From assembly GCA_000004695.1 (NCBI GenBank), contig CM000153.2, positions 3,264,001 to 3,328,000 of the forward strand: a stretch of 64,000 nt of DNA. The letters run 5' to 3'. Under the pieces are notes generated by a model, which saw only the letters and a list, made by a program, of their open reading frames with translations, searched no databases and was not told where the DNA came from. The stretch is from Dictyostelium discoideum. Lineage: Eukaryota. Position 1 is the stretch's first letter, and each line of letters begins with the position of its first letter. The position numbers and the translations under genes are program-made. Positions 20,385 through 38,459 of this stretch are shown one piece after another.

Positions 20385-20414
20385 GGCACACACAAACACT
20401 CTCATAAATGGAGA

Positions 20415-23400
20415 ATGATTCAAAACGCATTTTTATATTTAAAGATAATCATTCTGATAGTAATAACAAATAATGTAAACTCACAATTAATTGATATTTA
20501 TTTCAGTAATAGTTATGATGATTTAAATGGTAATGGCACCATATCAAACCCATATCAAAATTTATGTTTACTTAATCAAATTTTAAATTCAAATAATAAT
20601 AATAATAATAATAACGATAATATAAATAGTTCAATAATAATAATAAATATTGATTATGGTGATTACAATTTAAATTGTTCATCATTTTTAATAATAAATA
20701 ACTTTAATAATATTTCATTCATACCTTATAAATCAAATAATAATAATAATAATAATGAAATTGTAAATTTAAATAATATAACCACATTAAAGATACTTAA
20801 TTCAAATTTAGGATTTGATGGGTTAATAACAATAATAACGAATCAAATAGAGATTTCATATAGTAGAATCATATTCAACAATGGATCAAAACTTTATTTC
20901 AACATAGAAAGATATGAACATTCAACACACTTTCAATGCTCAAATATTACATTTTCAAATTCAACATTTCTTTTAAAAAGAGATGAAAACTACCTTGTAT
21001 CAGAATCTAGTTCATTCGAATTTTTAGATTCATCTTTAGAAAATATATCTTTAATATTTAATAATAACCTATATTGTAATAATAATAATAATAATAATAA
21101 TAATAATAATAATAATAATAATAATAATAATAATAATAATAATAATAATAATAGTATTGGTAATAGTAGTAGAATTAGTAGTGGTAGTAGTAGTAGTAGT
21201 TATTTTTTATCAATGTTTAATTGTAATGCAACATTGATTTATTTCAGGATGAATGGATTTGGAAATGTTTTAATTAATAATTCATTATTAAATGATATAT
21301 CAATTAGAATAGAAGGTAGTTTTATAGTTAATATTAATAGTTCAGATATTTATGCAACTTCATTAGATCCACTTTTCATGGTGGCGAATATGGATATAGA
21401 AAGATCACTTTTAAATATAATAAATTCAAATATTTACTATTTAAATGATTCTGAGTATCCTTTAGCAATTATAGTTAAAAATAGTTTACTAAATATAAGT
21501 GGTTGTAATATAAATGGAAACTTTAAAAGAATTTATCCTCAAGCATTAATAAATGTTGCTGGTACTCCTTCATCATCATCATCAAATGATAGTAGTAGTG
21601 GTAGTAGTAGTAGTAGTAGTTGTATAGATAATGAAGCTTTATTAATTTTAGAGAATTCAAAGATTTCAAATTTTAATTCACCAAATAAATTTATTTTTTC
21701 AATTTGTTCAACTATTTTTATAAATAATATTACATTTTATTCAAATTCATACTCAACATTTTTATATATTAATAGTAGTAGTATTGTTAATTTAGATAAT
21801 ATTATAATGAAATGTGATGATATGAATAGATTTGAATATTTATTTTTAGCACTACCATCATCGTCATCATCATCATCATCAAATATAACAATTAATAATG
21901 TTTATATGAGTTGTGTTGGTATGTTTGAATTTGAAAATTGTAGAATTGAAATTTCAAATTTTAGTTTAGAATCATTTTCAAAACCTTCAACTATTAGGCT
22001 AAGTCATTCAAGTGAATTAATAATTAGGAATGGTGTTTTTATTTCAAGTATATTCAAAATTAAATCTTTTATGTTTTATTTAGAGCAGAATAGTAGGTTG
22101 GTCATTATAAATTGTCAATTTATAGATAGCACTACCAATATTATTTTCTCAAGAAATTCAGAAACAGTTTTACAATATTCAAATTTTTCAAATATAATAC
22201 CATATGGTGGTGGCAGTGGTGGTGATACATTTAATTCAAATTCAATTTTCTACTTTTCAAAAAGTTTATTACAAATTGAAAATTGTAATTTTAATCAAAC
22301 TCAAACTTTATCATCCCTATTTTATATGGAATTTTCAGAGAATGTAATTATAAAATCAACAAGATTTGAAAGAGTTGGTGATACTATTTTAAAAAGTTAC
22401 TTTTCAAACAACAATATTATCATTGATGATATTTATGTAGTGAATTGTAGTACTACACAGAGTGAGTTATTCTTTTTAACGTTTAATGAAAATGTTGTAA
22501 TTGGAAATTCAACTTTTAAAAATAATCATGGTATTGGTTATACTTTATTTACTATTAATGGTTGTTTACATTTTGAAATTAGTAAAACAATGATTTCAGA
22601 TAACTCTTTCTCATCAATTTTTAAAGAATCAAATTCAAATGCCATTCTACTAAATTCAATAATCTCAAATGGTAATACAGTTGATGATTTTTATAAATCT
22701 TCAAATTGTTCTTCCCTTTCAATTGATACTTTTAATTTTACAAATAATTATGTTAATTCAATATTCACAATAAATAAAATCACATCCAAAATTCAACTTT
22801 CAAATATTATAATTACAAATAATTATTTCACTAAAATAATTACAAAATTTAATCAATCTATAGTTGAAATTAATAATTTAACATTTATAGACAACATATT
22901 AATTGCACCTCAAAAATATGATTTGGATGGTGGTGGTGGTAGTAGTGGAGGTGGTGGTGGTGGTGGTGGATTATTCTTTGAAAATTGTCAAGTTATTTCT
23001 AAAGGTTTACAAATTTTAAATAATGAAATTTCAGTTAATTTAATTAATTTAAATGATTCTATATTATTAATTTCAGATGGTTTATTTGAAAATAATCAAA
23101 TTTCATCAAATTTTATTCATTCTGATTTTTCAACTGTTGCTTTATTTAATACAAAGGTATTGCATAATCAAGGTGGTGATGGTGGTGGTTCAACTTTATT
23201 TGTTATTCATAATTCAAATATTAATATAAGTGATTGTGAATTCTCTTTTAATAATCTTTATAAAAATGGTATGGGTTCAATTATTAATTTTGATAAATAT
23301 TTAAATAAATTTACTTATTTTCAAATTGAAAATACTTTATTTTCTTTCAATATTGCTAAATTTGGTCAATTATACTTTTCAGGTTATCCAAATGATCAAG

Positions 23401-36300: not shown

Positions 36301-38185
36301 TTCATTTTCTCTTTAAATATTTCAAATATTTTAAATTCAAATCATTTCGATAATAATACTTCATTATGTGGTGATAATTTCTCTTCAAGTATGTATTTAT
36401 TATTATTATTATTATTATTATTATTATTATTATTATTATTATTATTATTATTATTATTATTATTATTATTATTATTATTATTATTATTATTATTATTATT
36501 ATTTTTATTATTATTGTTTTATTTTTATAAATAATCCTAATTTTTTTTTTTTTTTTTTTTTTTTTTTATTAGGTTTAAAAGAAATTATTTTCATTGAAAC
36601 TAATGATACATTTTTAGTAAATGGAGTTGGATCTATTATCAATTATAATGCAGTGGATTTTTATAATAATGCATTAACAACATTATCTTCACCAATTCAA
36701 ATTAATATTACACGTTTATCAGTTAATGTACTACAAACCTTCACTGGTGCAATTTTAAGTGGTAAAGGAAGTTTTTTACATACTTTTATAGGACCACTTT
36801 ATGAAAGATTTAAAATTGAATTGTATCTCAAACCATATTATTCAAATGTTTATTTAACACTTGGTAAATGTTTACCATTTCAATATATGAATAATTTAAC
36901 ATGTGAATATTGTCCAATAGGTTCATCATATAGTAATTCAATAGGTCAATGTTTAAAATGTAATCCTAATGCAGTGACATGTGTTGGTTCATTTGTAAAT
37001 GTAAATACTGGATATTATATGATTGATAATGAAATCTCAATTGTTGAACGATGTGCAAACGATATGTGTCTTTCAAATAATCAATGTCAATTTAAATATA
37101 GTTCAGGAGATTTATGTTTCAGTTGTTTAGATCCAGACTCATCAACACCAACATTCATAGCAGCTAAACATGGAATTAATTGTTGTTCCCAATTTAAAGT
37201 ATGGTTAATTGTACCATTATTATTATTATATTTAGTTTCAGCATTAGTTCTCTCAATAATCAAATTAAATTTATTCACAACAATAATTGGACCAATAATA
37301 GTATTCCTTCAAATTAATTCAGTGGTTTTCTTTTCTTATAATGGTATTTACATTTTAGCATTCTTTAGAGTATCATTAGATATTTTAGATGGAATTTGTA
37401 TTTTCAAAGGATTAAATCATGGAAATAAAACATTAATTACACTATCAATTATAATAATAATGTTTTTAATTTCTTCAAGTGATTGGTTCCCTTTATGGTT
37501 ATTTAGAAAATTAAATTCAAATTTTAAGTTACACAATTATTTAAAAAGAAATTTAAAAAAGAAAAGAAATTTAAAGAAATCATCAACAACTCAGTTTAAT
37601 TACTTTATTAGATCAAGATGGCAATTATTTCAAATCTTTATTATACCATTAATATTCAATTCATTTACATTGATAATACCAAAGAAAATTAAAGATCAAA
37701 CATTATTATTAGTAGATTTTTCAATTTTATTTGGATCATGGCAGAGTATTCTTCAAATTTTCATTTCAGTTTTAATAATAATATTTGTAATAGTCATTTT
37801 AGTGTTAAATCATTTTATTTTCAAAAAGGGTAAATTAAAGTTGTGGGAATTGATTATTATTGCAAAATCATTTTTATTTTCAATTCTATCAATATCATTG
37901 ATTTTTAATGATTTTTATACACCTTCAATTATTTTAATTCAAATTGTTTATTCAACTATTTACTTTTTATTAAATCCAAAAAAGAAAGGAAATTCAAAGA
38001 AATCATCGAAAATTGATAATAATAATTTTATAAATTTAATTCAACTATTAATCTTTCTTACTGTAAATTCAAAATTATTCCAACAAATTGCTCCTAATGT
38101 CTTTGGGTTAATTTTAACCATTTTAATTATTATCTCAACCTTTTTGATTGCAGTAAAAAAAAATAAAACATTTAGCTTTAATTAA
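33334..38185 (+). CDS. Paralog C of the same family (1555 aa); exons 33334..36388 and 36573..38185. The 184-nt intron is filled with an (ATT)n microsatellite.
   Basis: MIQSVYSNIIILILTIIIIINFNNVNS|QIIDIYFSNSYDNLNGNGTISNPYQNLCLLNQ.... Same GGAIYTENFIFSLNISNILNSNHFDNNTSLCGDNFSS|intron|S-LKEIIFIETNDTF... junction, and a C-terminal Cys-rich + polytopic TM exon almost identical to A and B. Confidence 0.75.
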
Positions 38186-38459
38186 ATTTTTGTCAAATAA
38201 TAAAAAAAATTATTATCACTTAATTTTTCATTTAAATTGTTTCAACAATTATATTTAATTTGTTCGATATAATTACAAATTGAGAATCTTTTGTTGAAGA
38301 TAATTTGAAGTTTTATTTTAATTTTTATTTTTATATTTTTATTATTATAATTATTATTATTATAATTATTATTATTATTTTTAAATTATTCAACCTTATT
38401 GAAAAAGAAAATTTTATTGAAAAAGAAAATTTTATTGAAAAATAAATTCTTTGAATAAA

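Follow-up and report, generated by a model that had tools for sequence, protein, structure and literature searches.

How can three neighbouring genes remain almost identical along some stretches and diverge widely along others? The question is raised by a stretch of 64,000 nucleotides (nt) of Dictyostelium discoideum DNA (assembly GCA_000004695.1, contig CM000153.2, positions 3,264,001 to 3,328,000; hereafter the window), in which three same-strand genes, here called A, B and C, encode long proteins with a large ectodomain and a many-pass membrane domain. Our comparisons demonstrate, at the level of nucleotide sequence, that interlocus gene conversion has homogenised the ends and the membrane core of these genes. 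We consider it rather probable that A, B and C are three old tandem paralogues from a pan-dictyostelid family of surface glycoproteins, that conversion acts on two tracts within them, and that their diverged extracellular rods feed into a common core.

Gene A consists of exon 1 at 20415-23580, an intron of 77 nt at 23581-23657 and exon 2 at 23658-25240, and its product has 1582 amino acids (aa). Gene B (exon 1 25563-28632, intron 28633-28704 of 72 nt, exon 2 28705-30374) encodes 1579 aa, and gene C (exon 1 33334-36388, intron 36389-36572 of 184 nt, exon 2 36573-38185) encodes 1555 aa. All three lie on the plus strand at the gene positions given in the initial annotation of this DNA, and their open reading frames (ORFs) and splice junctions were read directly. 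Aligning the copies locates one GT..AG phase-1 intron in each gene, at a homologous codon. The shared architecture that had been described is likewise seen in all three: a signal peptide ending in ..NNVNS with Q immediately after it, an Asn/Ser-rich ectodomain, a cysteine-rich (Cys-rich) module and a polytopic C-terminus. Because the intron of gene B keeps the reading frame and contains no stop codon, its retention would add 24 hydrophobic residues rather than truncate the protein, and an ORF finder reports an unbroken ORF of 1603 aa. The intron of gene C is longer than the other two because of a long TTA microsatellite, and it carries a 5-nt indel relative to an AX4-like re-assembly. An FNIP-repeat gene lies between B and C on the opposite strand, GTPase genes follow C, and no fourth copy of the family was found in the window. 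The G+C content of the window is about 20%, and DDB_G0285491 of D. discoideum AX4 is encoded exactly at 45002-45805 on the minus strand. Exact-sequence look-ups with the spliced models of A, B and C and with the unspliced ORF of B returned no match.

An artefact in which one gene was assembled three times is ruled out. The same trio, in the same order, is present in GCA_054883475.1, an independent chromosome-level assembly of an AX4-like strain that is 99.7-99.9% identical to the window and in which products of the same three lengths are called. It is also present in two further D. discoideum lineages (ACTFIW and ACTFIR) and in D. citrinum. The proposed tandem triplication is thus confirmed in every assembly compared, and on this distribution of sequences it is older than the split between D. 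discoideum and D. citrinum. Relative to the AX4-like assembly the window has 12 mismatches over 24.9 kb, eight of which are grouped at 30264-30431, within the final ~110 nt of gene B and the sequence immediately after it. These eight alter several residues in the last ~40 aa of the B product (Q to H and T to P, for example), and at these sites the AX4-like assembly matches the divergent lineages, not the window; they are either a local error in the source sequence of the window or a small mutational cluster. The protein ACTFIT_005854 (1579 aa) is identical to the product of gene B except for a few residues in the same last ~40 aa. The ACTFIW and ACTFIR assemblies differ from AX4-type sequence by a synonymous divergence (dS) of ~0.05-0.09 in every gene examined, and their flanking sequence is also mismatched to the window, at ~3.5%. 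Such values far exceed the usual diversity within D. discoideum, and these two assemblies, labelled as that species, may represent a cryptic sister lineage.

Sliding-window nucleotide comparison of A, B and C reveals a mosaic of conserved ends and a diverged middle, as the initial annotation had claimed, and divergence is not uniform along the genes. Identity between paralogues is 88-96% over the first ~330 nt, 50-80% over the central ~2.4 kb of exon 1, 92-100% over the last ~250-300 nt of exon 1 and 86-100% over the first ~1.15 kb of exon 2. It then falls to 62-82% over the last ~400-450 nt of exon 2, a stretch with indels that include an insertion of ~29 aa in B. The first conversion tract, encoding the signal peptide and an N-terminal cap (B 25563-25890; A ~20415-20745; C ~33334-33670), gives way immediately downstream to an identity of 62-72%, where the divergent beta-helix body begins (B 25891-28340; A ~20746-23290; C ~33671-36100). 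The second tract (B 28350-29850; A ~23300-24810; C ~36110-37720) contains the last beta-helix coils with a single GGAI motif, the intron, a stalk domain, the Cys-rich module and approximately the first five membrane helices, and its paralogues are 86-100% identical in AX4 and 81-100% in D. citrinum. It is followed by a divergent 3′ tail of exon 2 (B 29851-30374; A ~24811-25240; C ~37721-38185), which encodes a variable cytoplasmic loop and the last ~4 helices. All of these segments are on the plus strand. The near-identity originally reported for the first ~300 nt therefore stands, but of the ~550 nt reported for the end of exon 1 only the last ~250-300 nt reach 92% or more, and near-identity of the entire 1.6-kb membrane exon holds only for its first ~1.15 kb.

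We attribute the homogenised tracts to gene conversion because identity profiles, synonymous divergence, the switch of clades along the gene and the distribution of species-fixed sites all agree. In the core of exon 2, paralogues are 97-99% identical in AX4 and 98-100% in D. citrinum, whereas AX4 and D. citrinum orthologues are 88-92% identical (85-94% over the whole second tract). The order is reversed in the central ectodomain, where orthologues share 68-88% and paralogues 50-75%. Synonymous divergence by the Nei-Gojobori method is 0.058-0.094 between paralogues versus 0.27-0.28 between orthologues in the core, and 0.53-0.64 versus 0.34-0.41 in the middle. Neighbour-joining trees were built with 200 bootstraps from 12 sequences, the three paralogues of four lineages. 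For the middle and the 3′ tail they return orthologue clades in 168-200 of the 200 replicates, the middle in all of them. For the 5′ end, the 3′ end of exon 1 and the exon-2 core they return species clades in 172-200 replicates and no fully supported orthologue clade; species grouping reaches 172 for the first tract and 200 for the core within the second. At 53 of 1024 core sites the nine D. discoideum copies share one base and all three D. citrinum copies another; a fixed difference of this kind affects 10 of the 2231 middle sites and 1 of the 291 tail sites. Moreover, five core substitutions are confined to one strain yet common to all three of its paralogues, which suggests that conversion is still going on. 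Paralogues that are nearer to one another than to their orthologues, synonymous sites included, together with trees that conflict along the gene, are what concerted evolution leaves behind, and the earlier suggestion that the ends are kept alike by conversion is in this respect shown to be correct. Mosaic interlocus conversion with islands of divergence is known from mammalian gene pairs (PMC2720389) and from GOT1 in Tigriopus (PMC3728101). As in those cases, stretches that are closer between paralogues than between orthologues adjoin conversion-free regions; there is no difference in principle, and A, B and C provide a new, clean example in a social amoeba.

The divergent middle encodes most of the ectodomain, for which a right-handed beta-helix had been proposed, and this proposal is upheld by a Pfam match in C and by a structural model of B. 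Protein C scores 28.3 bits against Beta_helix (PF13229; cut-off 25.9). Neither A nor B has a match above the threshold; among relatives, two Acytostelium proteins score 48.1 and 50.5 bits and a chytrid protein 83.1 bits. An AlphaFold2 model of the mature B ectodomain, built on an 8-sequence alignment, has a predicted template modelling score (pTM) of 0.64; residues ~50-890 are confident and consist entirely of short strands, with three-dimensional similarity to solved beta-helices. We consider the fold assignment sound. A more specific kinship with the chlamydial polymorphic membrane protein (Pmp) repeats is not supported. No match to Chlam_PMP (PF02415) was obtained for A, B or C at E≤1, each protein has exactly one GGA[ILV] motif (the GGAI of its last helix coil), and there is no autotransporter Pfam match in any of the three, whose C-terminus is a nine-helix hydrophobic domain and not a beta-barrel. 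In the 24 relatives, Chlam_PMP matches are sub-threshold and found in five (best E 0.0052). The description of the ectodomain as full of N-x-S/T, GGAI(F/Y) and FxxN motifs also fails, since FxxN occurs 16-24 times per protein, where shuffling at constant composition predicts 14-16, and N-x-S/T sequons 33-36 times, where it predicts 34-38. In a consensus of 24 family members, FxxN...GG.(F/Y) is repeated two to three times in the part nearest the membrane, and the family is Pmp-like in a loose sense only. The passenger beta-helices of chlamydial Pmp proteins and other autotransporters (Vag8, pertactin, UpaB, Hap, Ag43) are anchored by a beta-barrel in place of nine alpha-helices, and A, B and C differ from them further in being eukaryotic and in possessing a Cys-rich module.

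This module, which in B occupies 29001-29318 (plus strand), has 13 conserved cysteines and runs from CLPFQY to NCC. All 13, and one further cysteine in the loop after the second membrane helix, are fully or almost fully conserved in 24 family members. Matches of the A, B and C modules to TNFR_ELAPOR1_6th are insignificant (E 3-5); at the same position, 4 of the 24 relatives match Ephrin_rec_like (GCC2_GCC3, PF07699) and 6 match DUF7630. The polytopic domain follows directly (29319-30371 in B, plus strand), with its N-terminus predicted outside and its C-terminus inside. Of the 9-10 helices first counted, the lower number is the one retained, as consensus hydropathy over 17 dictyostelid members gives nine. 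Lysine plus arginine residues average 8.9, 4.0 and 2.5 per sequence in the predicted cytoplasmic loops versus 0-2.0 in the predicted external ones, and the orientation is predicted from this distribution.

The chytrid protein and two others, designated P0036 and P0040, have membrane domains that align colinearly with this one, and we regard the domain as homologous to its chytrid and protist counterparts. Their common features include a Q in helix 2 that never varies, a C and then a K conserved after an FR.S.D segment, a D....C loop, and the motifs Y(K/R)....W(W/F)(D/E).....R and P(Y/F/W)......N..E. A dictyostelid profile restricted to the transmembrane region scores 29.1 bits against the membrane part of P0040, 23.0 against P0036 and 20.0 against a third protein, P0039, and the maximum over 900 window-shuffled decoys is 6.3 bits. 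Alignment of the dictyostelid and outgroup transmembrane profiles with hhalign gives a probability of 94.4% and an E-value of 9e-8 over 149 columns. P0040, which also has Ephrin_rec_like repeats, is the only one of the 24 relatives to pass PF06011 (TRP), at 29.3 bits with a gathering score of 28.5, and the match appears to cover the same part of the membrane domain. PDB sequence searches with the family profile and with the membrane domain of P0040 returned nothing meaningful.

PF06011 is a fungal TRP-like family that includes Pkd2 of Schizosaccharomyces pombe, the Flc proteins of Saccharomyces cerevisiae and Cryptococcus neoformans, and TrpR of Aspergillus nidulans. Pkd2 is described as combining a signal peptide and an extracellular ML-like domain with a TRP-like membrane domain, and as ending in a cytoplasmic tail (PMC6727746); it is reported to be Ca2+-permeable under membrane stretch (PMC9727806). 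Hydropathy and the distribution of basic residues predict the same layout for A, B and C, namely a signal peptide, a large extracellular N-terminal domain, a polytopic domain and a cytoplasmic C-terminus. However, their ectodomain is a beta-helix with a Cys-rich module rather than an ML-like domain, and they have no long cytoplasmic coiled-coil tail. A second parallel, drawn by description only, is with the cysteine repeat modular proteins (CRMPs) of apicomplexans and ciliates, which combine a large ectodomain bearing putative binding modules with EGFR-like Cys repeats and multiple C-terminal helices, nine of them as predicted in Toxoplasma and Plasmodium, and which have been proposed to be surface sensors (PMC9670195). 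The plan of Cys repeats and nine helices is alike, but CRMPs carry MAR and Kringle domains instead of a beta-helix, and their role is to trigger exocytosis of rhoptries or mucocysts.

The family itself is considerably wider than the lineage-specific one first envisaged. A profile of the stalk, Cys-rich and membrane region, searched against every representative protein, retrieves 29 representatives at E≤1e-3, most of them 1300-1900 aa long and matching at the C-terminus (a word-indexed homologue search with the family alignment gave two matches only). Besides DDB_G0272102 (UniProt Q55A59, "Transmembrane protein") and another paralogue in D. discoideum, they include proteins of D. purpureum, D. 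firmibasis, D. dimigraforme, Tieghemostelium lacteum (two) and Acytostelium subglobosum (two), and a distant member in the chytrid Powellomyces hirtus that is annotated as "Right handed beta helix domain-containing protein". The named members are all hypothetical proteins. Because the succession of beta-helix, Cys-rich module and polytopic domain recurs in chytrid fungus and protist proteins, the combination cannot be called unusual, as it had been. Such proteins may fall under the PANTHER label "G-protein-coupled-receptor-related". That label appears only indirectly, for CRMPs, in PMC9670195.

These observations can be assembled into a working model. Each protein begins with a cleaved signal peptide and continues as a right-handed beta-helix rod of ~950 aa, which a short beta-rich stalk joins to a 13-Cys module resembling the cysteine-rich modules of ephrin or TNF receptors; a nine-helix membrane domain comes last. 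Since the separation of D. discoideum and D. citrinum, the two tracts have been homogenised repeatedly by interlocus conversion, while the beta-helix body and the last ~4 helices escape it and evolve paralogue by paralogue under moderate purifying selection. The rod would then be the ligand-binding part, its specificity would differ between paralogues, and its ligand, given the usual partners of this fold, is probably a carbohydrate or glycan or else a cell-surface ligand. A common transducing core, whether of a receptor, a channel or a transporter, may consist of the stalk, the Cys-rich module and the first five helices, all of which conversion homogenises, while the variable cytoplasmic loop and last four helices would be specific to each paralogue. 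This core would be kept interchangeable by conversion itself, or by selection permitting conversion only in regions whose function is common to all three. As judged from sequence, A, B and C are probably ligand-sensing receptor or channel-like proteins with a common signalling core.

Several considerations weigh against this interpretation. The functional role of the three proteins is something that we infer, and no paper came out of a literature search on the family, DDB_G0272102 and PTHR11319. The exon-2 products of A, B and C have no match to PF06011 at E≤10; their connection to that family is plausible, and is transitive through P0040, which barely passes the threshold. A model of the Cys-rich and membrane region from a 6-sequence alignment has a predicted local distance difference test (pLDDT) score of 36, and an extra hydrophobic stretch in the variable loop of B could change the topology. 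Strong purifying selection (dN/dS, or omega, of 0.2-0.35) also helps to conserve the core. Finally, beta-helices also form polysaccharide lyases and hydrolases, and the ectodomain may have a catalytic role instead of a binding one.

This last point leads to the main functional rival, in which the proteins are membrane-anchored enzymes that degrade or modify polysaccharides (lyases, hydrolases or epimerases), with bacterial capsules or the slime sheath as possible substrates and the polytopic domain serving as an anchor or exporter. We think this improbable, though it deserves to be kept in mind.

Slightly less credible still is that the trio belongs to a polymorphic self/non-self or adhesion family whose beta-helix is under diversifying selection and varies between strains, as in tgrB1/tgrC1. 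The mosaic with a diverged exposed region had suggested such a recognition family, and the ectodomain does contain poly-N and poly-S tracts of variable length. Tgr proteins are single-pass and have an Ig/TIG fold. Like A, B and C, tgrB1 and tgrC1 are adjacent D. discoideum genes for large surface glycoproteins, and a polymorphic character was proposed for the present trio as well; Tgr proteins are reported as highly polymorphic (PMC11088635, PMC4448137). Yet among the three D. discoideum lineages that make up our polymorphism sample, the ectodomains of the trio, which have a different fold, show no excess of polymorphism over the flanking FNIP genes. Between AX4 and the two divergent lineages, nonsynonymous divergence (dN) in the ectodomain exons is 0.017-0.032, dS is 0.056-0.095 and omega is 0.26-0.37, and the corresponding values for the FNIP genes are 0.027-0.037, 0.036-0.069 and 0.41-0.86. 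For the middle, omega is 0.27-0.33 when D. discoideum lineages are compared with one another and 0.32-0.52 when the comparison is with D. citrinum, and with region-wide values of 0.27-0.52 there is no gene-wide positive selection in A, B or C. Windows of 60 codons with omega of 0.9-1.14 number five in B, one in A and none in C, a few of those in B reaching ~1.06-1.14 against D. citrinum. Neither allelic divergence above that of the flanks nor a region-wide dN/dS above 1, the signature of a hyper-polymorphic tgr-like locus, was found in the three lineages. Furthermore, the clean orthologue clades of the middle imply stable paralogue identities rather than shuffled alleles. On these sequence data, the divergent middle is old paralogue divergence out of reach of conversion. 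Homopolymer tracts of the ectodomain do differ in length between lineages; a run of ~25 Asn codons in gene A (21090-21170), for example, is much shorter in the ACTFIW orthologue.

Hardly worth entertaining is the idea that strong purifying selection alone, or a recent duplication with a fast-diverging middle, made the tracts near-identical with no conversion at all: the tracts do encode the most conserved modules, at a low omega of 0.08-0.35 for most pairs, but core dS is 3-5 times lower between paralogues than between orthologues, the core groups by species and the middle by orthologue, 53 homogenised substitutions are fixed by species, the triplication already exists in D. citrinum, and neither process can yield these patterns of dS, clustering and fixed sites.

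Several neighbours of the trio have features of their own. Directly adjoining it is a presence/absence difference of ~7.8 kb: the segment 12513-20305 is found in AX4-type assemblies and is absent at this position from the ACTFIW and ACTFIR assemblies, where MIX23 lies ~850 nt upstream of gene A. It holds an FG-GAP plus EGF (teneurin-like EGF) gene with ORFs at 15817-18948 on the minus strand (its product has 912 aa in GCA_054883475.1) and a small gene at 19531-20049. Downstream of C are two paralogous GTPase genes of the MMR_HSR1 type (38460-40202 and 41672-43876, minus strand). Comparison of the first with its ACTFIW counterpart gives a dN of 0.11 and a dS of 0.19, several times the values for the trio or the FNIP genes, which may reflect real fast evolution or mis-paired paralogues. 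Farther away, and unrelated to the trio, a 1715-aa ORF at 50745-55892 (plus strand) combines a TARBP1 domain with a SpoU methylase domain at its C-terminus, and because of these its product is probably a tRNA/rRNA 2′-O-methyltransferase.

Conversion at this locus clearly exemplifies a process already known, in a family wider than was at first thought. What the locus provides is a well-bounded natural experiment, in which conversion tracts and conversion-free islands have stood side by side within single genes since before a species split. The mosaic marks out the modules that are interchangeable (the N-terminal cap, stalk, Cys-rich module and first five helices) and the paralogue-specific ones (the beta-helix body and last four helices). 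The analysis also connects a dictyostelid family that had no annotation with a eukaryotic architecture of beta-helix, Cys-rich module and TRP/Flc-like polytopic domain that is widespread but has scarcely been studied. A bolder and quite tentative proposal is that this family and its dictyostelid, chytrid and protist relatives form an unrecognised class of eukaryotic surface receptor-channels, in which a carbohydrate-reading rod would control the gating of a nine-helix core with kinship to Flc/Pkd2 and perhaps to CRMPs, tandem paralogues would offer different ligand specificities, and conversion would maintain one signalling core among them. If this were true, the social amoeba paralogues might recognise, for example, bacterial prey or matrix polysaccharides. 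Dictyostelium is genetically tractable, and the role of the membrane module there may bear on that of the fungal Flc and Pkd2 proteins and possibly on the apicomplexan CRMP sensors.

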